Shown one piece after another: positions 2,817-35,201 of a stretch of DNA of 38,205 bases. Source of the DNA: a bacterium (GTDB lineage: Bacteria > Patescibacteriota > Minisyncoccia > Phycocordibacterales > Phycocordibacteraceae); NCBI GenBank assembly GCA_027311385.1, contig DAICZA010000002.1, positions 21,327 to 59,531 of the forward strand, in the 5' to 3' direction. The position numbers and the translations under genes are program-made. The first letter of the stretch is position 1, and every line of letters starts with the position of its first letter. Under the pieces are notes generated by a model. It was not told the origin of the DNA, searched no databases, and saw only the letters and a list, made by a program, of their open reading frames with translations.

Positions 2817-2832
2817 TTTAGTTTACAAAAGT

Positions 2833-2866
2833 AAAACGGCGAGCATTGCGGCTCGCCGTTTTGTTT
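2833..2866. terminator. bidirectional intrinsic terminator
   Basis: aaaacggcgagc-attgcg-gctcgccgtttt. Confidence 0.8.
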
Positions 2867-2880
2867 GGGGAAAGGTGGGC

Positions 2881-3231
2881 TTACTCGATGCCGAGGCTCC
2901 TTTTGTAGATGTCTTTGATGAACTCAGTTTGTGATGCGAATGCTGTTTTTGATGACTCGTCCATTCGATCCCAGACCTTCTCCATCTGTTTTGCAAGTTC
3001 GGGATTTTGGCCGCGGGTCTGTTCGCGCTGAGTCTGGATGTTCGCAAGGCTTTGACGGTACGAGCGCAAAGCATTATCCAGGCTTTTTTGCATATCGGTC
3101 CTTGCGCGGGCCATGATGGCCTGACTGTGGACGGCATGCGCCGCGCGGAGCTTACGGATCTGTGCGTCTCCCCAGGCCGTGATCTCTTTCTCGGCCGCGG
3201 CGACTAATTCATCAATAGTGGGATTGGTCAT
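2881..3231 (-). CDS. hypothetical alpha-helical/coiled-coil protein (116 aa)
   Basis: Start re-assigned to MTNPT at 3231, which has a GAGGAG SD; ends near the 2833-2866 terminator. Confidence 0.7.
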   Translation of the reverse strand: MTNPTIDELVAAAEKEITAWGDAQIRKLRAAHAVHSQAIMARARTDMQKSLDNALRSYRQSLANIQTQREQTRGQNPELAKQMEKVWDRMDESSKTAFASQTEFIKDIYKRSLGIE

Positions 3232-3343
3232 GTGGCACTCCTCGTTGGTGGCGGATTGACAGGGTACTCCACGATTACATATCCCATATTTTATAGATAG
3301 AATCAATCGCATCGGAATGTAGTGCATTTGCACACCCTGCATA

Positions 3344-3371
3344 TTGACGGCGCTTTCAGGCGCGGTACCAT
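3344..3371 (+). promoter_or_regulatory. sigma70 promoter
   Basis: TTGACG-16 nt-TACCAT. Confidence 0.6.
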
Positions 3372-3377
3372 AGTTCC

Positions 3378-3505
3378 ATGCAGCGTCGACAGAATCTTCT
3401 CGGCCTCCTCCTTACCACCAACGGTGGAGGGTTCGGCCGTGTCTAGATTCTAAAAGAAACCAGATACAACCGAGAGCCTCCACCAGGAGGCTCTCGGTTC
3501 GTTTT
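3378..3505 (+). promoter_or_regulatory. candidate Leu-responsive transcription attenuator (leader peptide 3378-3446 plus terminator 3468-3505)
   Basis: Leader MQRRQNLLGLLLTTNGGGFGRV*; terminator aaccgagagcctcc-acca-ggaggctctcggtt-cgtttt; alternative pairings are available. Confidence 0.6.
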
Positions 3506-3539
3506 GATCTTTCTGCAACCAAGCAAGTAAGGAGGAGTT

Positions 3540-3845
3540 ATGGCAAGCATGCTGTTTACGGAACCGCCCGATGGTCTGTCACTCGAGGAAGTTCACCAAG
3601 CAATCGCCGTCGCAACTGCGCGGTTGAACGGCGAACGGGCGAAGATGGACGTTGTCCTCTTTGCGCAGGTGTACGTCGGCCCGATTGTCGTTACCCCGGG
3701 ACGGGAGGTAACGTCCTTCATTGTGTCGTACTCGGACAAGGACGCTGACGCGCCGGTATCGGTAGACACGGCGCTCAAACGACTTATTGATTCCCGGAGG
3801 CGGGACCGGTGGTGGTACCCGCGCCGCGATTGCTATTGCGCATAA
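3540..3845 (+). CDS. hypothetical protein (101 aa)
   Basis: Strong AAGGAGGAG SD; followed by a terminator. Confidence 0.7.
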   Translation: MASMLFTEPPDGLSLEEVHQAIAVATARLNGERAKMDVVLFAQVYVGPIVVTPGREVTSFIVSYSDKDADAPVSVDTALKRLIDSRRRDRWWYPRRDCYCA

Positions 3846-3870
3846 CCCGTTACCAGCGGGGGAGTGCATT

Positions 3871-3917
3871 CGGCCGCCGTTCGCCCACAAGGCGAATCGG
3901 CGGCCGGTTTCTTGTTT
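3871..3917 (+). terminator. intrinsic terminator
   Basis: cggccgccgttcgcc...ggcgaatcggcggccg followed by gtttcttgttt. Confidence 0.7.
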
Positions 3918-3969
3918 GTCTTCTTATCTTGCGTTTCTGTCCTAGATTGGTGGTAGAATTGGAAGACGT

Positions 3970-4206
3970 ATGGATATCGAGAAACAAAAGAAGAATGCTC
4001 GGCAGGCAACTATTGTATGCATAGTATTCTTGGTTGTATCTGTGTATTTTGGTGTAAAGGTCTTGTATCCCGACCTCGGAAATGAACCCGCTCATTTGTT
4101 TGATCCTCTTTATAACCTGGTTGCTTTTATCTTGGCGGCCCCACTCACACTTTATTATGCGATCCTAGCAGTATTTAGATTTTCCAAGTTACAGGGACTG
4201 AAATAG
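3970..4206 (+). CDS. small two-TM membrane protein, AT-rich
   Basis: 78 aa with two hydrophobic helices; TGg-TAGAAT -10 box 10 nt upstream. Confidence 0.7.
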   Translation: MDIEKQKKNARQATIVCIVFLVVSVYFGVKVLYPDLGNEPAHLFDPLYNLVAFILAAPLTLYYAILAVFRFSKLQGLK

Positions 4207-4239
4207 CAGAGGGGAGGTTACCCCCCTCCACGTGGCGGT

Positions 4240-4268
4240 TTGCATTTGTAAAGAGTTTTGCGTATAGT
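4240..4268 (+). promoter_or_regulatory. sigma70 promoter for tuf-rpsJ
   Basis: TTGCAT-17 nt-TATAGT. Confidence 0.7.
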
Positions 4269-4389
4269 GCTCTATAACGCATCTTGGCGTCGCTCTTTGG
4301 CTTGTCTGCTTTTGTGAGTCGGCAAGCTTTGGAGTTTGTTCCGACTCGCGTCGGAGTTATTCGTGATTAACAGAATAAATTAACCGATT

Positions 4390-5595
<1,206 letters not shown>

Positions 5596-5603
5596 CTACT
5601 TGC

Positions 5604-6044
5604 ATGGCAACAGCGGCAAAACCGAAAGCAAAACCGGCGGCGAAGAAAGCCGCGGCAAAGGTCGCGGCGCCCGCGAAGCGCGCATCCGCGCCGCGGGCGA
5701 AAGCCCCGGCCAAGAAGGCCGCCACGGCCGCTCCGGCGGAGCACAAGCTCCGCATCCGCGTCCGCGCCTATGAGCACAAGATTCTGGACCTCTCGGTGAA
5801 GCAGATTATGGACACTGCCGCCCGCTTTGACGCCGTCGTCGTCGGCCCCGTGCCGCTCCCGACCGAAATCAAGCGCTGGACGGTGAACCGCTCTACGTTC
5901 GTCTACAAGGATGCGCGCGAGCAGTTTGAAATGCGCGTCCACAAGCGCCTCATTGATATCATGAACCCGTCCCCGAAGGTGATTGAGGCCCTCACGAACC
6001 TCAATTTACCCTCCGGTGTGACGATAGACGTCAAGATGGTCTAA
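5604..6044 (+). CDS. rpsJ: 30S ribosomal protein S10 with an N-terminal Ala/Lys/Pro-rich extension
   Basis: LRIRVRAYEH, GPVPLPT, REQFEMRVHKRLIDI. Confidence 0.97.
   Translation: MATAAKPKAKPAAKKAAAKVAAPAKRASAPRAKAPAKKAATAAPAEHKLRIRVRAYEHKILDLSVKQIMDTAARFDAVVVGPVPLPTEIKRWTVNRSTFVYKDAREQFEMRVHKRLIDIMNPSPKVIEALTNLNLPSGVTIDVKMV
5984..6044 (+). repeat. rpsJ 3'-end direct repeat, copy 1 (in gene)
   Basis: 61 nt; 53/61 identical to 7657-7717. Confidence 0.95.
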
Positions 6045-6061
6045 CTTCGCTCGGTTGGGCG

Positions 6062-6099
6062 AACAACACAGACGGTCCCGGTGACCGTCTGTGTTGTTT
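6062..6099. terminator. intrinsic terminator after rpsJ
   Basis: aacaacacagacggtc-ccggt-gaccgtctgtgttgtt, a 16-bp perfect stem. Confidence 0.8.
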
Positions 6100-6144
6100 A
6101 GTATGGGTGTGCGACGGTGTGCTACTGTAAAAGCACATCGAGGT

Positions 6145-7659
6145 ATGCAAGATGCGCTCAAAGACTTCGTATTGCAAGAACGAAAGAGAGGCGTTTCCGA
6201 CTCTGATATCACCCATGCTTTGCAAGGCGCGGGATGGCAGGTCGCTGACATCGAGATGGCGCTGGCGACACTCCCGAGTACCCCGGCGTCTACGTGGCGT
6301 ATGGGCGTATTGGCAATAGGGGGAATTGTAGCCATCGCGTTTTTGGCGACACTTATCTTTCTGATGTTTCGCGCGCCGTCCGCAACGTCAACTGGCGGCA
6401 CGGCGCGCACAGTCGTTGCACCGGTCGCTTCGGCGTCTCCGCAAGATGTCTCGCCTCCAGTATCTGTCGCGCAGAGCACGACCACGAGCCAATCGACGCC
6501 GACCGCCAACACATTCGCGCTTACGAGCATCTTTTTAAAAGATGATCCGACGGCGCAGCGCATTGCGACGGGCGCACAGAGTAGTGTCGATATCCGCACG
6601 TTTTCGTTGAAGATTGGAGACGCGACTGCTGTTGGTACCGATTCCTTCGCGTATCGTCTTGTTAGTGCGTTGCGTATGCTTGGATACGTTCCCGGCTCCG
6701 CAGGCGGGCAATATATGTCGGAATCATTACTGTTTCCTTTCGAGCGGGATAACAATCTCCCCGTATCAGATATGGTCAATGCGCAGGTTCTAAAAACGCT
6801 TGACGCCGAGCTTGCAGTCCGAGAGACCAAGGACGCACAGCTCTCCGCACAATTCCCGCTCGCGAAATATGTTACGGCACCACCGGTTGTTAACGAGCCG
6901 ACGGAGGAGCATGCCGCAGCGCTGTTCACGATTGCCTTCAAGGCATTGCCGTCGCAGCTGGTTGTGTGGAATGAGAAGAACTTCCAGACCTATCTCGCCA
7001 AACAGGTGACAGGGTCGTACGCAGGACTCGGCACGCCGAACTACCGCGTTTGCCTCGCGTTCTTGTACCCGGAGTTTGGAGACGCTTGTGCGGTCATACA
7101 TAAAAAAGTGTCCGGCTTCTGGGGAAGCGACTTTTCCATTGCCACCACGCTTCTGCACGAATATGCACATTACCTCGACAAGAACCTGTATGCTCCGGAG
7201 CAGGGGACGTCACTCGGTATCATAGACACGTCAGGGTTCTACGCCATTTCATACGATACGAGCAAGGGAACGGTCACCAGTAACGGGTGGACGGAATATC
7301 CCTTCCTCAGGCCGAACGATGTCGCAAACGAGTTTGTCTCAAGTTATGCTGAAGGGTGGGGCAATGACTCTATTCATACGGCGTATGAAGACTTCGCGGA
7401 ATCATTTGCCTTATACGTGACCGGCGGGCGGATTTTCCGTGAGCTCGCAAAGACCTCTCCGGTACTGAGCGAGAAGTACTTGTGGCTCAAAGAGCACGTC
7501 TTCGGTGGGCAGGAGTACGATACGGGAGACGTCGCGAGCATCGCATATCTCAAGGCCCACGCAACTGCATCCGGAGCGGATGCCGTAGCGACCAAGGCAT
7601 TCAATGTTATTGATTACGCTACACAACTTCCAGATTTTGACTGGAGTTACACGTTCTGA
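6145..7659 (+). CDS. membrane-anchored extracellular zinc metallopeptidase (HEXXH zincin); cargo between the rpsJ repeats
   Basis: Start at ATG 6145 (GAGG upstream). Short cytoplasmic N-domain, one TM helix, S/T/P linker, LLHEYAHYLD, FVSSYA...EDFAESFALY. Confidence 0.8.
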   Translation: MQDALKDFVLQERKRGVSDSDITHALQGAGWQVADIEMALATLPSTPASTWRMGVLAIGGIVAIAFLATLIFLMFRAPSATSTGGTARTVVAPVASASPQDVSPPVSVAQSTTTSQSTPTANTFALTSIFLKDDPTAQRIATGAQSSVDIRTFSLKIGDATAVGTDSFAYRLVSALRMLGYVPGSAGGQYMSESLLFPFERDNNLPVSDMVNAQVLKTLDAELAVRETKDAQLSAQFPLAKYVTAPPVVNEPTEEHAAALFTIAFKALPSQLVVWNEKNFQTYLAKQVTGSYAGLGTPNYRVCLAFLYPEFGDACAVIHKKVSGFWGSDFSIATTLLHEYAHYLDKNLYAPEQGTSLGIIDTSGFYAISYDTSKGTVTSNGWTEYPFLRPNDVANEFVSSYAEGWGNDSIHTAYEDFAESFALYVTGGRIFRELAKTSPVLSEKYLWLKEHVFGGQEYDTGDVASIAYLKAHATASGADAVATKAFNVIDYATQLPDFDWSYTF

Positions 7660-7717
7660 GGCCCTCACGAACCTCAATTTGCCCTCCGGCGTCACCATCG
7701 ACGTCAAAATGGTGTAG
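7657..7717 (+). repeat. rpsJ 3'-end direct repeat, copy 2 (orphan EALTNLNLPSGVTIDVKMV*)
   Basis: First 24 nt identical to copy 1, then 8 third-position synonymous differences; begins in the TGA stop of the cargo gene. Confidence 0.95.
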
Positions 7718-9737: not shown

Positions 9738-10586
9738 ATGAAAACGTACAAGCCCACTTCCAAAAGCCGCCGCCAGATGACCACCCTGCCGTACAAGCAG
9801 TTGCTTTCGGGCGACGCGCCGCACAAGCCGCTTCTCAAGAAGAAGGGGAATCAGGGCGGTCGCAACGCGTTCGGACGCATTACGACGCGGCACCAGGGCG
9901 GCGGCCACAAGAAGCGCTTCCGCGACGTGGATTTCAAATACGACAAGAAAGATATCCCGGCGAAGATTGAGACGGTTGAATACGACCCGTTTCGCAGTGC
10001 GTTCATCGGGCTCGCGCTCTACCGGGACGGCGCGCGCCGCTACGTCATCCTGCCGAAAGAAGTGGCGGTCGGCAGCACGTTCGTCGTGTCCGAGAAGGCG
10101 CCGCTCTCGCCGGGGAACCGCCTTCCGCTCGGGAAGATTCCGGTCGGCACGTTCATCTACAACGTTGAAATTACGCCGCTCGCCGGCGCGCGCCTCGTCC
10201 GCTCGGCGGGCAACTACGCCGAAGTGGTTGCGCACGACGCGGGCTACGCACAGGTGAAACTCCCGTCAACGGAAATCCGCAAGATTTCCGACCTTTCGTG
10301 GGCCAGCATCGGCGCCGTCGGCAACGAGGAATACAATCTCGTCGTCATCGGCAAGGCCGGCCGCAGCCGCTGGCTCGGTATCCGCCCGACGGTACGCGGC
10401 ACCGCGATGAACCCGGTAGACCACCCGCACGGCGGCGGCGAAGGCCGTCAGGGCCGCGGGCTCCGCCGCGCAAAGAGCAAGTGGGGCAAGCCCACCGGCA
10501 AGGGACAGAAGACGAGGACCCCCAAAAAATACTCAAACGTGTTTATTGTCAGCAGGCGTAAAGTTGGAAAGAAACGCAAAGGTTAG
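9738..10586 (+). CDS. rplB: 50S ribosomal protein L2
   Basis: GRNAFGRIT, EYDP, VRGTAMNPVDHPHGGGEG. Confidence 0.99.
   Translation: MKTYKPTSKSRRQMTTLPYKQLLSGDAPHKPLLKKKGNQGGRNAFGRITTRHQGGGHKKRFRDVDFKYDKKDIPAKIETVEYDPFRSAFIGLALYRDGARRYVILPKEVAVGSTFVVSEKAPLSPGNRLPLGKIPVGTFIYNVEITPLAGARLVRSAGNYAEVVAHDAGYAQVKLPSTEIRKISDLSWASIGAVGNEEYNLVVIGKAGRSRWLGIRPTVRGTAMNPVDHPHGGGEGRQGRGLRRAKSKWGKPTGKGQKTRTPKKYSNVFIVSRRKVGKKRKG
10527..10586 (+). repeat. rplB 3'-end repeat, copy 1 (in gene, AT-rich codons)
   Basis: Encodes KYSNVFIVSRRKVGKKRKG*. Confidence 0.92.
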
Positions 10587-10594
10587 CCGACCTG

Positions 10595-10635
10595 CCCCGT
10601 AGCCAACCGAGCGAAGCGAGGTTGTGGTACCGGGG
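10595..10635. repeat. hairpin repeat (CCCC.../GTGGT-NN-GGGG family) between the rplB repeats
   Basis: ccccgtagccaacc-gagcgaagcga-ggttgtggtaccgggg. Confidence 0.65.
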
Positions 10636-10637
10636 AG

Positions 10638-10697
10638 AAGTACTCAAACGTCTTCATCGTCTCCCGCCGCAAGGTCGGCAAAAAGAGGAAAGGATAA
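10638..10697 (+). repeat. rplB 3'-end repeat, copy 2 (orphan, host-like codons)
   Basis: Same 19-aa peptide; 14 of 19 codons plus the stop differ synonymously; shared core tactcaaacgt. Confidence 0.92.
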
Positions 10698-10734
10698 TTT
10701 TACAAAGCACCCAGTAGGCGATTCTGCTGAATCG

Positions 10735-10764
10735 AAAAGCTCCGCACATTCGTGCGGGGCTTTT
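10735..10764. terminator. intrinsic terminator
   Basis: aaaagctccgcac-attc-gtgcggggctttt. Confidence 0.75.
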
Positions 10765-10827
10765 GCTATAGTTGACTCTAGACGAAGAACTTTTTTGTCG
10801 AATTTCCACCAACCGGACAAGGAGAAG

Positions 10828-11049
10828 ATGATGAAGAACGCAGATAGCGGAGTACGACCTATTTCAGAGGAAATGAGACGGCGAATCGAAGCAGGTCTTC
10901 GCGATTTGAGCGATCCCAATTCAGTTACACGGAGACGTTATAACGCGGCCGCGGAGAAAGGGGTCAAGTTGCTCAAGCCACTTGAAGATGTCATCGCCAG
11001 GTCGGAATGTCTGACCGAGTCTGATTTAGACATCGTCATAAATGTATGA
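10828..11049 (+). CDS. hypothetical protein (about 73 aa)
   Basis: AAGGAG SD before MMKNAD; TGc-TATAGT upstream; terminator at 11056-11087. Confidence 0.65.
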   Translation: MMKNADSGVRPISEEMRRRIEAGLRDLSDPNSVTRRRYNAAAEKGVKLLKPLEDVIARSECLTESDLDIVINV

Positions 11050-11055
11050 CACAAA

Positions 11056-11087
11056 GGCCGTTCCCTCGGGAACGGCCCGTGGTTTTT
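11056..11087. terminator. terminator between convergent genes
   Basis: ggccgttccc-tc-gggaacggcc followed by a T-tract. Confidence 0.7.
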
Positions 11088-11843
11088 TTATCTGTACTCC
11101 GGCTTCAGGATGTTCGCGAGTTCTGATGTTGGAATACGGAGCGTTTGCGGTCCGGCGGCATAGGGGGCGACCGCGTAGGGAGGGAAGAGAATGACGAGAT
11201 TTTGGTTATCAAAAAAGAAGTTTGCAAAATTCTTATCGTCGGGCGTCGTGCCGGGGTTGATGAAGGCCGCGTCGGCGCCTTGGCCGATGATAGCGGGGAG
11301 TTTTGCGCGCGCGAGCGACGAGAGCGTGCCGAGATAGTCCGCACCCGGCGCAAACAGGTCGGCGAGCGTGAGCGCCGCGCCGCTTGTCGTGTCAAAGGTG
11401 AAGGTCTTGAAGAATGTGTTGCCGTGCGCGCCGAGCGTGTCCTCGTAGACGGTGAAGATGTAGGAGACGGTGTGCGACGACGACGCGGTGAGGTACACGA
11501 TGTTGAGTGTCTCTTTGCGTCCGGCGCCGAGACCAATCTTCGCGGCGTCCTGCGGCGTGAGCGTAGCGAAATTGCCGTCAGACTTGAATTGCGCGATGGT
11601 GTCGGCGACGAAACGCTTCATCTCTGCCACGGCGACGGTGTTTTCGGCGGCGGCGAGCGGCGTGCTGGTCGCATAATTGGCGGCGATATCGTAGTAAGGT
11701 GCGTGTTCTACGTAGTGGTTCCCCGGCAGGGCGACGGTCGCTCCGGGTGCCTTCGCCGGCACCGGGCGCGTGGCGGCGTAGAGGACAATACCGATGAAAA
11801 TGACGAGTATGACGGCTATCCCAATGTAGGTATTTCTCTGCAT
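11088..11843 (-). CDS. membrane-anchored RsiV/PdaC-like (DUF3298-type) protein
   Basis: N-terminal TM; GAHGN, LTLADLF and F.PY.VAPYAAG motifs. Confidence 0.8.
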   Translation of the reverse strand: MQRNTYIGIAVILVIFIGIVLYAATRPVPAKAPGATVALPGNHYVEHAPYYDIAANYATSTPLAAAENTVAVAEMKRFVADTIAQFKSDGNFATLTPQDAAKIGLGAGRKETLNIVYLTASSSHTVSYIFTVYEDTLGAHGNTFFKTFTFDTTSGAALTLADLFAPGADYLGTLSSLARAKLPAIIGQGADAAFINPGTTPDDKNFANFFFDNQNLVILFPPYAVAPYAAGPQTLRIPTSELANILKPEYR

Positions 11844-11968
11844 AGTATGTGCAAGTGTACCGCAATTTCGCGGTCTTGTGGGGATTTTCTGTAGTTCACG
11901 CTACATACACGATATGTCAAGGTTCTGGAATGACCTAGGATTTATGAGGGTGTTTCGGAACGGTAGAG

Positions 11969-11997
11969 TTGACTCCACCGGCCTCTTCCTGTATCTT
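11969..11997 (+). promoter_or_regulatory. sigma70 promoter for rpsS and downstream genes
   Basis: TTGACT-17 nt-TATCTT. Confidence 0.65.
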
Positions 11998-12032
11998 TCC
12001 TGTATCCCGCTGCGCGGGCTTTTCATTACTTT

Positions 12033-13429: not shown

Positions 13430-13560
13430 ACCCCGGCACCACTTTTGCGAAACGAAACGAAACAACCATGACTACTTACATTACAATTGCTTATGAAAAT
13501 AAAAACTTGTCCGCAAGACAAGTTTTTGGGGGCGATTGCACGGCAAAAGTGGTGCGGGGT
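13430..13560. repeat. MITE/REP-like inverted-repeat element between rpsC and rplP
   Basis: accccggcaccacttttgc ... gcaaaagtggtgcggggt; internal hairpin aaaaacttgtc-cgcaa-gacaagttttt. Confidence 0.75.
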
Positions 13561-34046: not shown

Positions 34047-35201
34047 CTAACGAAAATCTCTGATAAGCAGCGTGGCTCCCGCGCCGGCGAGCATAATGAA
34101 TCCGCCGGTAAGAAGGAAGAGGAGCTGATACGTACCGAAAAAGAGAATACTGCTGCCGACGACAGGCGCGAGGAGGCTCGCGACAGGCCAGACGCCGCGG
34201 AAGACGCTGATGGAATTGACGTCCCGCTCCGAAACGCGGCGGAAGAAATGCCCCTCGGTCATACTCTCAATGAGTGCCGAACCGACTCGGGAACAGACGA
34301 GGATGACGACAATGACCGCGATGGGTGTCGCCGGTGTGAGGAGAGAAAGCGACGCAAGAGAAGCGCCGGCGATGAGAAACCCGGCGAGCAGCATTTCTTT
34401 ATCGCCGAGCACTGTGTCGGCAATCCATCCGGCCGGGTACTCAATGAGTACGTAGGGAATGAGCATCAGCGAGAACATCCAGCCGAGACTTGACCAAGGA
34501 ATGCCGAGCACCGCGTGGAGATACGCAGGGACGTAGAGCGGCGCCCAGCTATAGAAGGAGTAGAGGATAAGGTGCCCAAACGTGACGGCCGCGAGGTCGC
34601 GGTCGTGCAGGATACAGGTGAGCGTATCCCGCAGGTGGGAGAGCTTGGGCGGCACGCCGGTCGGAAGCCGTTTGGTCGCGAAAAGGACGATGAACGGGAC
34701 GAGTGCGGCGCTACTGGCGAGGAACACGCGCCCGTAGGCGTCGGAATTAACGAGAAGCGCGCCCATAAGAAGCGGCGATATGAGCGAAGCGACATTCCAC
34801 GCTGTGGTGAAGCGCGTCCGCACGCGTCCGGTCGTCCCTTCTTCGGCGACGGTCGCTTCCAGAAGGAGGTCCAGTTCATACGCAAGGAGCGGCTCAAGCG
34901 AGATGGACAGGGCGATAAGGAAGGGAGCCACGAGAGCGCCGGGCGCCACCGCAAGAGCGAAGAGCATCGCCGATTCCAGGAGGGCGAACGTCAGGGCGAT
35001 TCGCTGGATGCCGAAGCGGCCGACGAGCTGCGGCATAAGCGGGAACAGTATGATGGCGACAAGCGCGCCGCCGGATATCACGAGGCCGGTGTAGGCCATC
35101 GGCATAAAGGTGGAGAGGTAGGGGAGCAGAATGTAGGCCGTGAGCGCAGAGAACAGCGCGAAAAAGAAATTCCCGGTGTAGATGATGGTGCGCGGCCGCA
35201 T
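34047..35201 (-). CDS. MFS transporter
   Basis: About 12 hydrophobic segments, PAGWIAD..LGDK; start at ATG 35201. Confidence 0.88.
   Translation of the reverse strand: MRPRTIIYTGNFFFALFSALTAYILLPYLSTFMPMAYTGLVISGGALVAIILFPLMPQLVGRFGIQRIALTFALLESAMLFALAVAPGALVAPFLIALSISLEPLLAYELDLLLEATVAEEGTTGRVRTRFTTAWNVASLISPLLMGALLVNSDAYGRVFLASSAALVPFIVLFATKRLPTGVPPKLSHLRDTLTCILHDRDLAAVTFGHLILYSFYSWAPLYVPAYLHAVLGIPWSSLGWMFSLMLIPYVLIEYPAGWIADTVLGDKEMLLAGFLIAGASLASLSLLTPATPIAVIVVILVCSRVGSALIESMTEGHFFRRVSERDVNSISVFRGVWPVASLLAPVVGSSILFFGTYQLLFLLTGGFIMLAGAGATLLIRDFR

Follow-up and report, generated by a model that had tools for sequence, protein, structure and literature searches.

How a gene for a ribosomal protein comes to carry its own end twice, in two versions that encode the same residues with mostly different codons, is the question raised by rplB (ribosomal protein L2) in a 38,205-nucleotide (nt) stretch of DNA from a Patescibacteriota genome (GenBank assembly GCA_027311385.1, contig DAICZA010000002.1, positions 21,327 to 59,531 of the forward strand). 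The whole stretch is called the window below. It is part of contig C22 of a genome, G000, with 637,727 bases, 47 contigs and 58% G+C, and labels of the G0xx, L0xx and L1xx types stand for other genomes, or loci in them, with which it was compared. We find that a hairpin that looks like a repetitive extragenic palindromic (REP) element is cleanly inserted in the native tail of rplB, that the broken tail abuts a diverged replacement tail, and that the same design recurs across a family of loci.

The two ends of rplB

The functional rplB frame occupies positions 9738 to 10586 of the plus strand and ends in TAG (10584-10586), as given by the list of open reading frames (ORFs) and by Pfam (Ribosomal_L2_N, E 7.7e-29; Ribosomal_L2_C, E 1.9e-48). 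Its last 22 codons, stop included (10521-10586, plus strand; PKKYSNVFIVSRRKVGKKRKG and stop), are in frame with the body and rich in A+T at third codon positions, and they are assigned as a replacement tail by their third-position G+C content (GC3) and their identity to relatives. Directly 3′ of the stop, four bases (10587-10590, plus strand) begin a second such unit, which is broken by 45 nt (10591-10635, plus strand), resumes at 10636, ends in TAA (10695-10697) and continues into the native downstream sequence (10636-10697, plus strand). The 45 nt consist of CCTG and a 41-nt hairpin (10595-10635) with the arms CCCCGTAGCC and GGTACCGGGG. When 10591-10635 is removed, the uninterrupted rplB tail of the relatives is restored, with no target-site duplication. 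The repeated unit is thus 66 nt (10521-10586 and 10587-10590 plus 10636-10697), and its two copies are 70% identical, encode the same residues and are in phase with the gene. Because the element breaks the second unit after 4 nt, the two copies lie directly against each other, and the insertion, a clean one, falls within the displaced copy. Four bases of stub alone are weak evidence, and the claim is carried by 26 of 39 loci of the wider family and by a 7-base stub at an RNase Y-like gene, both described below.

The initial annotation had reported that KYSNVFIVSRRKVGKKRKG and its stop are encoded twice, 51 nt apart, and a recount gives the same figures. The peptide is translated from 10527-10586 within rplB and from 10638-10697, in one frame, with starts 111 nt apart and 51 nt (10587-10637) between. 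Fourteen of the 19 sense codons differ (including AGC/TCC, AGG/CGC and CGC/AGG) with 0 residue changes, the longest identical run is 11 nt, and the 59 nt aligned are 71% identical; the stop is TAG in the gene and TAA in the displaced copy, or orphan. The repeat reaches three codons further left than first described. The spacer had been taken for essentially one hairpin, and it does fold and is a mobile repeat, but it does not lie between the copies, being a 45-nt insertion 4 nt inside the orphan. The fold at rplB has a predicted energy of -25.2 kcal/mol (z -2.0), and 8 of 200 shuffled sequences fold as well. L2 is predicted to be made from the replacement tail, because a complete 22-codon copy, in frame with the body and with its own stop, lies upstream of the element; the native tail and the element would then trail behind, read by no frame in the DNA. 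Downstream of the rplB stop, the frame of the orphan contains no start codon, and the listed ORF at 10624-11049 is in another frame.

The orphan is the native tail, and the in-gene tail the foreign-looking one. Measured against 19 relatives of the same genus, mean identity is 83.5% for the orphan unit, 71.9% for the in-gene unit and 80.2% for the rplB body, and the GC3 values are 0.81, 0.43 and 0.84, respectively, in agreement with the first description of an AT-rich tail in the gene and a host-like orphan. Joined across the element, the stub and the remainder give a 22-codon unit that matches the uninterrupted tails of the relatives. The orphan is the closer copy in 18 of the 19, and its nearest relative, L012 (90.5% identity), differs from it at 6 of 63 bases and from the in-gene unit at 17 of 63. 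All 19 relatives examined have a single rplB tail and no hairpin.

Where the replacement tail came from is less well constrained. The sequences nearest to it are the native tail of G017, the exception among the 19, and the in-gene tail of L154, both at 77.8% identity. G017 (locus L013) has neither hairpin nor orphan, and its sole rplB tail, AT3-rich and of the replacement type, follows a GC3-rich body; the tail is either that of a donor-like lineage or the footprint of a lost insertion. A distant donor had been proposed at the outset; a native tail of the in-gene type does exist in G017, but no donor of lower G+C content carrying the tail followed by the hairpin was found. A degenerate pattern for that combination gave two matches in the genome collection, an unrelated member of the Verrucomicrobiota and L154, which itself has an orphan, and 0 matches in two metagenome scans.

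L154, a Patescibacteria metagenome-assembled genome (MAG) from another project, has the same rplB stub and junctions in a body 80% identical to that of the window, and its hairpin, the single copy in that genome, differs at two positions. Between G000 and L154, the replacement units are 77.8% identical and the orphans 81.0%, and the cross comparisons give 66.7% and 68.3%. Trees of the locus are star-like, and a clade of G000 and L154 is not rejected by the approximately unbiased (AU) test (p 0.082 for 369 nt and 0.254 for 1400 nt). The two arrangements may reflect shared descent with many losses or horizontal spread.

The assembly of the locus is supported by Logan contigs from three runs of one study, which tile the rplB tail, hairpin and orphan across both junctions with 0 differences; those of run X2, for example, cover 10428-10630 and 10601-10899. 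Since a second locus has 39 nt in common with the hairpin, the Logan contigs end within it, and consequently the left and right flanks are not phased by the contigs. Run X3 also holds a related allele without the insertion (loose end at 10636).

The hairpin at other genes

The hairpin is a discrete, mobile, REP-like repeat. Allowing at most one mismatch, the motif of its 3′ arm occurs 13 times in G000 versus once for the reversed control. A strict pattern (CCCCGTAGCC, 14 to 26 bases, GGTACYGGGG) has six copies in the 638-kb genome and matches at least 118 stretches in a species-representative genome collection, nearly all of them in MAGs of Candidatus Kaiserbacteria, Paceibacterota or Patescibacteria, with a few likely chance matches elsewhere. 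Among 60 relatives (0 to 4 copies each), the pattern occurs in 9, all of the window's own genus and none of the 24 other families, so that G000 makes 10 of 61 genomes. The consensus of 83 copies has a constant left GCCTG (51, 77, 57, 68 and 78 of 83 at successive positions) and a right T (66 of 83). The inner stem covaries, with 6, 23, 36 and 36 double changes at four pairs in 75 sequences; the outer stem is uninformative on covariation because it was fixed by the search pattern. GTAG, at stem positions 5 to 8 behind CCCC, is present in all copies, but the pattern required it. No Rfam family covers the hairpin, and the eight weak matches all fall far below gathering scores. Insertion without any duplication is seen again in the tuf leader of G023 (locus L164), which was compared by eye with the uninterrupted sequence at 4320-4390 of the window. 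The hairpin always lies 1 to 21 nt from the unit junction, and 8 to 53 nt separate the functional end from the hairpin in the copies examined. The suggestion that the rplB spacer is the scar of a cassette that lost its cargo finds no support in these data, as being free of cargo is the norm of the family.

The most informative sister locus is an RNase Y-like gene on contig C42 of G000, where the hairpin differs from that of rplB by one base and the element is absent from the site in 29 of 29 relatives. With the element removed, the orphan is identical at 24 of 24 positions to the native tail of G034, and across the 29 relatives the orphan is the closer copy in 22 and the replacement in 4, the remaining 3 being ties. 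The native tail of a distant genome, G022, matches the replacement unit at 92% identity, and GC3 is 1.00 for the orphan, 0.12 for the replacement and 0.79 for the body. To the left of the hairpin, the 7-base stub looks native, and the entire replacement unit is foreign-like, which argues against the insertion of a single composite block at the hairpin edge. Two further genomes share the insertion, making three species in all, and the frame is kept in each. In L158, the orphan has two residue changes.

Recurrence was tested by deleting CCTG and the hairpin in silico at each locus and seeking a direct repeat, with mismatched flanks as controls. After deletion, 39 of 82 loci exceeded the 95th percentile of the controls, and at 26 of those 39 the homology crosses the excision point by at least 3 nt on each side, placing the element within the orphan. 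At the protein level, 27 of 88 loci beat all 88 mismatched-flank controls. Over 26 loci, differences between the copies are mostly synonymous (pN/pS, the ratio of nonsynonymous to synonymous differences per site, 0.20, with pS 0.73), with some frames misassigned, and a few loci have near-identical copies (L032 and C33, each 95%). The design of rplB was found at other housekeeping genes of G000 and related genomes, among them the RNase Y-like gene, dnaE, tsaD, a gene for a LepA-like GTPase and fusA. Gene starts are affected as well as gene ends. In head-type copies, an orphan start and its first codons, broken by the element, lie upstream of a complete new head; such loci in G000 are dnaE, tsaD and the LepA-like GTPase gene, and the same genes are affected in other genomes.

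The junctions follow simple rules. No nucleotide separates the stop from the orphan unit at five tail sites (rplB, RNase Y, an Xer-like tail, G014b and fusA of L085), and at heads the functional ORF and the orphan unit are 1 to 2 nt apart at some sites and up to 16 to 18 nt apart at others. Codon phase at the unit junction varies between loci. In every copy read by eye, the functional copy lies 5′ of the strand of the element that carries CCCCGTAGCC, and an automatic check found an open frame leading away from the left copy at 35 of 39 loci and from the right copy at 19 of 39. In head-type copies, as read by eye, a short frame begins upstream and ends on or close to the new start codon. At folD (contig C18 of G000, near 5385-5422), the hairpin lies 10 nt upstream of the start codon, and the frame of the upstream gene continues across the hairpin to a stop that overlaps the folD start codon as ATGA. 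Orphan-initiated mini-frames at dnaE and tsaD are closed by an ATGA overlap of this kind as well.

Which enzyme might move the element was approached through the genome's own candidates. G000 has five matches to the Y1 HUH transposase family (Y1_Tnp, PF01797), four of them above the cut-off, and one of these ORFs, scanned against NCBIfam, matched best to REP_Tyr_transpos (REP-associated tyrosine transposase, RAYT) with E 1.2e-10 and 41.5 bits, against a cut-off of 80 bits. The hairpin and Y1 genes are only loosely associated: of the 10 genomes with the hairpin, 9 have a Y1 gene, but so do 31 of the 51 others. In the genome, there were 0 matches to the TnpB domain PF07282 and 0 to IS110, and the search for an RNA-guided nuclease found none. 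Contig C22 also carries a tyrosine integrase (849-1379) and a reverse transcriptase (3578-4183) about 17 to 20 kb upstream of the window. The reverse transcriptase matches best to the group II intron type, below the cut-off, and nothing ties either gene to the rplB locus.

Duplicated gene ends are not confined to copies with the canonical hairpin. The window holds an S10 ribosomal operon (fusA, tuf, rpsJ, rplC, rplD, rplW, rplB and then rpsS onward), and a window-wide scan for shared 7-residue words found long gene-end duplications only at fusA, rpsJ and rplB, with scattered single words elsewhere; among these, KALTVRA, shared at 3046 and 9321, was judged to be chance, unlike the rplB repeat. 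The fusA tail (ending in DDIIASRK and a stop) is doubled at 2386-2423 and 2785-2822, 399 nt apart and 87% identical. Its orphan is preceded by a variant hairpin (2747-2782) with the arms CCAGTACC and GGTACTGG. The stretch that separates the copies contains an ORF of 76 codons (2498-2728), resembling that of a small membrane protein, and a terminator-like hairpin. In G016 and L085, the fusA tail has the canonical hairpin at different insertion points. The rpsJ tail is doubled at 5984-6043 and 7657-7716 (88% identity; the first 24 nt are identical and seven synonymous changes follow), and its copies flank a 522-codon ORF (6091-7659) with a predicted membrane anchor and a HEYAH motif. Directly 3′ of the in-gene rpsJ stop, near 6046-6059, lies a 14-nt piece of the inner part of the hairpin in reverse orientation. 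The notion that the 522-residue product is a homing nuclease is unsupported, the features at hand being a weak Peptidase_Mx match (E 0.09) and the HEYAH motif.

Further observations of this kind lie outside the window. On contig C9 of G000 (near 2826-4650), an RNase R-like tail (AARIAEKELDFVPAA and stop) is doubled, 1381 nt apart, around an ORF of 169 codons, a duplicate of the convergent neighbor gene's tail and a RAYT-like Y1 gene (3488-4141, minus strand) with a palindrome of its own on both sides; tail duplication thus also accompanies a transposase-bearing insert. A genome-wide scan gave further stop-ending tail duplications in G000 on C14 near 1622 (spacing, 203) and C15 near 6154 (spacing, 831), ending in AGAKVTLK and LYDRHFGH, respectively. 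Sequences related to the hairpin were noted at other sites. A variant on contig C42 (near 35102-35137, minus strand) sits in frame within a RarA-like ATPase ORF, with no stop and no duplication. On C11, the hairpin's 3′ arm is joined to its own complement in a near-perfect palindrome of 29 nt (63505-63533), and a RAYT-like ORF (61638-62420) is found about 1.1 kb away. Between rpsC and rplP in the window, a 130-nt element (13431-13559) with the inverted ends CCCCGGCACCACTTTTGCG and CGGCAAAAGTGGTGCGGGG encloses a 31-codon frame; its ends are one base off the hairpin arm, and one further copy of the end motif was found, on C20. Finally, the region from the orphan to rpsS (10698-12032) contains a 73-codon ORF (10828-11049) between terminator-like hairpins and a minus-strand DUF3298 gene (11088-11843). 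The DUF3298 gene is also there in several relatives, so that part is older than the rplB event.

Origin of the arrangement

How an element without genes came to lie beside so many duplicated gene ends calls for a mechanism. We consider it probable, with real room for doubt, that the element landed in the native gene end and that the gene was rescued by a diverged replacement end from another lineage. The order of events, the enzyme, the uptake of DNA and the joining step in this account are those that we infer. The element would transpose as a small nonautonomous unit with an enzyme supplied in trans, for which the RAYT- and IS200-like HUH tyrosine nucleases of the genome would be the candidates. 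Once an essential gene had been hit in its end, only chromosomes that had acquired, by uptake and recombination, a homologous but diverged end from another lineage would survive. The foreign strand would pair as far as homology reaches, to the ORF boundary, and its 3′ end would be joined to the resident strand at a nick lying a few bases to the 5′ side of the hairpin, leaving foreign and native units in tandem. Later recombination with element-free alleles would keep the orphan native-like, and the stop-proximal part of the replacement tail would remain the most diverged. Such a course of events would account for junctions that are ORF-exact in any codon phase, for how short the stub is, for the orientation rule and for codon usage of foreign type.

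A bolder version, which we hold only tentatively and think rather doubtful, makes the hairpin itself the handle of an undescribed "end-capture" reaction, a nuclease-free driver of gene-end exchange across species in bacteria of the candidate phyla radiation (CPR). Here, an HUH nickase would cleave a few nucleotides 5′ of the hairpin and keep hold of the 5′ end that it makes. A homeologous single strand acquired from a relative would anneal to the gene up to the ORF boundary, and the enzyme would join the bound 5′ end to the 3′ end of that strand. The reaction would explain the ORF-exact junctions at heads and tails alike, the 1- to 21-nt stub, the fixed orientation and the foreign codon usage.

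Several observations weigh against insertion followed by rescue. The hairpin lies within 400 nt of none of the five Y1 ORFs, four of which have other palindromes or repeats of their own and the fifth of which runs off the end of its contig. Conversely, Y1 motifs were found within about 400 nt of 0 of 94 hairpin loci, and Y1 genes occur in 40 of 61 genomes versus 10 of 61 for the strict hairpin. For the in-gene rplB tail, no donor closer than the 77.8% relative was found. That the replacement unit ends exactly at the stop is accounted for by the proposed model alone and not by data, and the automatic orientation check was crude in that any frame was counted. A subfamily with a TCTCG or TCCCG left end has no stub and a variable 23- to 50-nt arm, so that a single mechanism may be too narrow for the whole family. 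When orphans that occupy one site in different species are compared (one pair per group), most differences fall on third codon positions (3, 3 and 22 of 28 at the first, second and third position). Either each was orphaned recently or orphans are refreshed by recombination with element-free alleles, and refreshment enters the account as an assumption. Moreover, the RNase Y hairpin is identical at 41 of 41 positions in the three species, as are 10 to 11 of the 11 bases from stop to hairpin, and the units differ at third positions; identity of the hairpin amid diverged units could mean an old, constrained structure and not a recent insertion.

That last point belongs to one of the other readings, in which the arrangement is old and serves the host as an RNA or DNA signal (mRNA end protection, processing or termination inside the ribosomal operon), selected and inherited vertically with losses. 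The covarying inner stem, the conserved RNase Y hairpin, the third-position bias among orphans and the upstream frames that stop on or near new start codons would all suit such a signal, but it would have to be absent from 19 of 19 (rplB) and 29 of 29 (RNase Y) same-genus relatives examined and present in 10 of 61 genomes only. The two residue changes in the L158 orphan also count against it, as does the reading of the tail orphans: no frame reaches them, and 7 of the 8 tail loci checked are out of frame. We judge a host-serving signal unlikely. We think it similarly improbable that the whole 111-nt block of replacement tail, stub and hairpin is a minimal mobile unit, much as the initial annotation had proposed, excised as a circle and inserted by a Campbell-type single crossover in the conserved core. 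L154 has the same block and junctions in its 80%-identical body when nearer relatives lack them, the two units are most alike beside the insertion point and most different near the stop, and 111 nt preserves the frame. Integration of such a unit at the 3′ edge of the hairpin, however, predicts a foreign stub and a native start of the replacement unit, and RNase Y contradicts it with a native-like stub (24 of 24 with G034 when joined) and a foreign-type start. In addition, the L154 genome holds only one hairpin copy, the in-gene tails of G000 and L154 are at 77.8% no closer than the bodies, and descent of both from one ancestor fits the AU tests.

The remaining explanations fare worse. Tandem duplication of the rplB tail on the spot, with divergence in place and a hairpin arriving later in the spare copy, would explain why the units abut with 0 nt between them and are equal in length, and why the copies at L032 and C33 are nearly identical. 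The initial annotation had argued from the saturation of the synonymous differences that duplication in place with neutral decay fails; the orphan, moreover, matches the native tails of the relatives, and we regard this origin as very improbable. The two copies have 17 base differences with 0 residue changes, and, since the in-gene unit is 17 bases and the orphan 6 bases of 63 off the nearest relative, the translated copy would have had to change far faster than the untranslated one. GC3 is also 0.43 against 0.84 in the same gene, and the hairpin is always found 1 to 21 nt from the junction and not anywhere in the spare copy. An assembly artefact, in which two strain alleles of the tail were stitched together through the repeated hairpin, is suggested by the breaks in the Logan contigs, the 39 nt shared with the second locus and the insertion-free allele in run X3. 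Such an artefact is scarcely credible, because the same arrangement is present in L154, an independent MAG, and because each orphan matches its gene across its own hairpin, unlike what misphasing would give; contigs of the three runs also give both junctions without a difference. Finally, we give almost no credence to programmed read-through or ribosome bypass of the TAG, which would yield L2 with a second tail from a 37-codon in-frame block. Both genomes preserve the frame at rplB, and three do so at RNase Y, but other tail loci are out of frame, the in-gene stop is TAG or TAA depending on the locus, the product would hold the same 19 residues twice, and head-type copies cannot operate in this way.

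Three further ideas were considered and set aside. A guide-RNA "drive," in which the hairpin and orphan act as guide and the tail is recoded for immunity, is at odds with the finding that the bases beside the hairpin are the most alike and with the lack of an RNA-guided nuclease in our search. Target-site duplication and simple Campbell models misfit the stub data. For a diversity-generating retroelement, the differences involve all four bases with no residue change, and the reverse transcriptase of the contig is not linked to the locus.

The arrangement matters beyond rplB. Mosaicism reaches even the most conserved operon of a 638-kb CPR genome, in which fusA, rpsJ and rplB end in replacement tails with their native ends orphaned, and a 45-nt element without a gene is tied to this design at dozens of loci throughout a genus-level group. 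Should the mechanism be true, it would offer a natural way to live through the disruption of essential genes by insertion and would let short horizontal patches pass unseen by ordinary gene trees. In practice, gene calling, prediction of start sites and calling of strain-level variants in these MAGs will go wrong at orphan ends and upstream mini-frames, and the element is a ready marker for recombination among uncultured lineages.

Relation to known systems

Insertions that replace the end of a gene are known from other settings. Prophage e14 and phage 21 bring a synonymously diverged end to icd of Escherichia coli, leaving the gene intact and the native end orphaned, and both are kilobase elements with an integrase and an att core. 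The element at rplB, in contrast, has no integrase and no cargo, and the geometry of its junctions is different. Insertion sequences (IS) of the IS200/IS605 group have ends defined by hairpins, make no target duplication and use a Y1 HUH enzyme, TnpA, which lies with or without TnpB between two subterminal hairpins. Insertion without target duplication is shared by the element described here (at rplB, at RNase Y with 24 of 24 positions restored, and by eye in the G023 tuf leader), and the Y1 HUH family is present in the genome. Unlike IS200/IS605, however, the element has one hairpin, no transposase inside, no TnpB and no proven target tetranucleotide.

A parallel to the two tails themselves is found in fungal mitochondria. 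Passages of Beaudet et al. 2013 (PMC3630166) describe gene hybrids made by mobile ORFs (mORFs) in atp6 of Allomyces and in atp6, atp9, cox2 and nad3 of Glomus. There, a diverged C-terminal copy is inserted in phase and the displaced native C terminus, closer to that of relatives, lies downstream; the copies are 64 to 81% identical with mostly synonymous differences, which was read as horizontal transfer, and a homing-endonuclease ORF between the copies drives mobility (PMC3630166). At rplB, the diverged in-phase end copy (10521-10586) and a displaced native end closer to relatives are likewise present, but in place of an ORF there is only a 45-nt hairpin, which sits inside the native copy, and in the family heads are hit as well as tails. 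The rpsJ insert is closer to the mORF design, but its 522-residue ORF is not nuclease-like.

Two classes of palindromic repeat resemble the element itself. Rickettsia palindromic elements (RPEs) are small repeats of palindromic form that may be inserted in frame within genes (cited in passages of Di Nocera et al. 2013, PMC3733652). The in-frame variant hairpin of the RarA-like ORF on C42 is similar to these, but the rplB element follows a functional TAG, is read by no frame and comes with a duplicated gene end. To our knowledge, a duplicated gene end is not a described feature of RPEs. With the GTAG class of REP/REPIN-RAYT systems, the element shares a short, imperfect palindrome, in which GTAG was required by the search pattern, and several copies at gene ends. 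The genome has RAYT-like HUH Y1 genes, of which the one scanned fell below the RAYT cut-off, and the 41-nt hairpin with four covarying inner-stem pairs corresponds to the 20- to 40-nt palindrome of REPs. According to passages of Di Nocera et al. 2013 (PMC3733652), GTAG REPs lie near or inside coding regions and some supply a stop codon. A link to duplicated, recoded gene ends is absent from the text of PMC3733652, in which the word "duplication" occurs 0 times, and among the top-ranked matches of a literature search no paper joined Patescibacteria or Kaiserbacteria with REP-type elements, which is not proof that none exists. The element differs from REPs in that there are six copies instead of tens to hundreds, in that GTAG lies inside the stem behind CCCC and not at the end of the palindrome, and in that no RAYT gene is flanked by this hairpin to form a REPtron. 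Thus, copy number and RAYT flanking set the element apart from REPs, and the absence of a nuclease or integrase of its own sets it apart from the insertions that replace gene ends.

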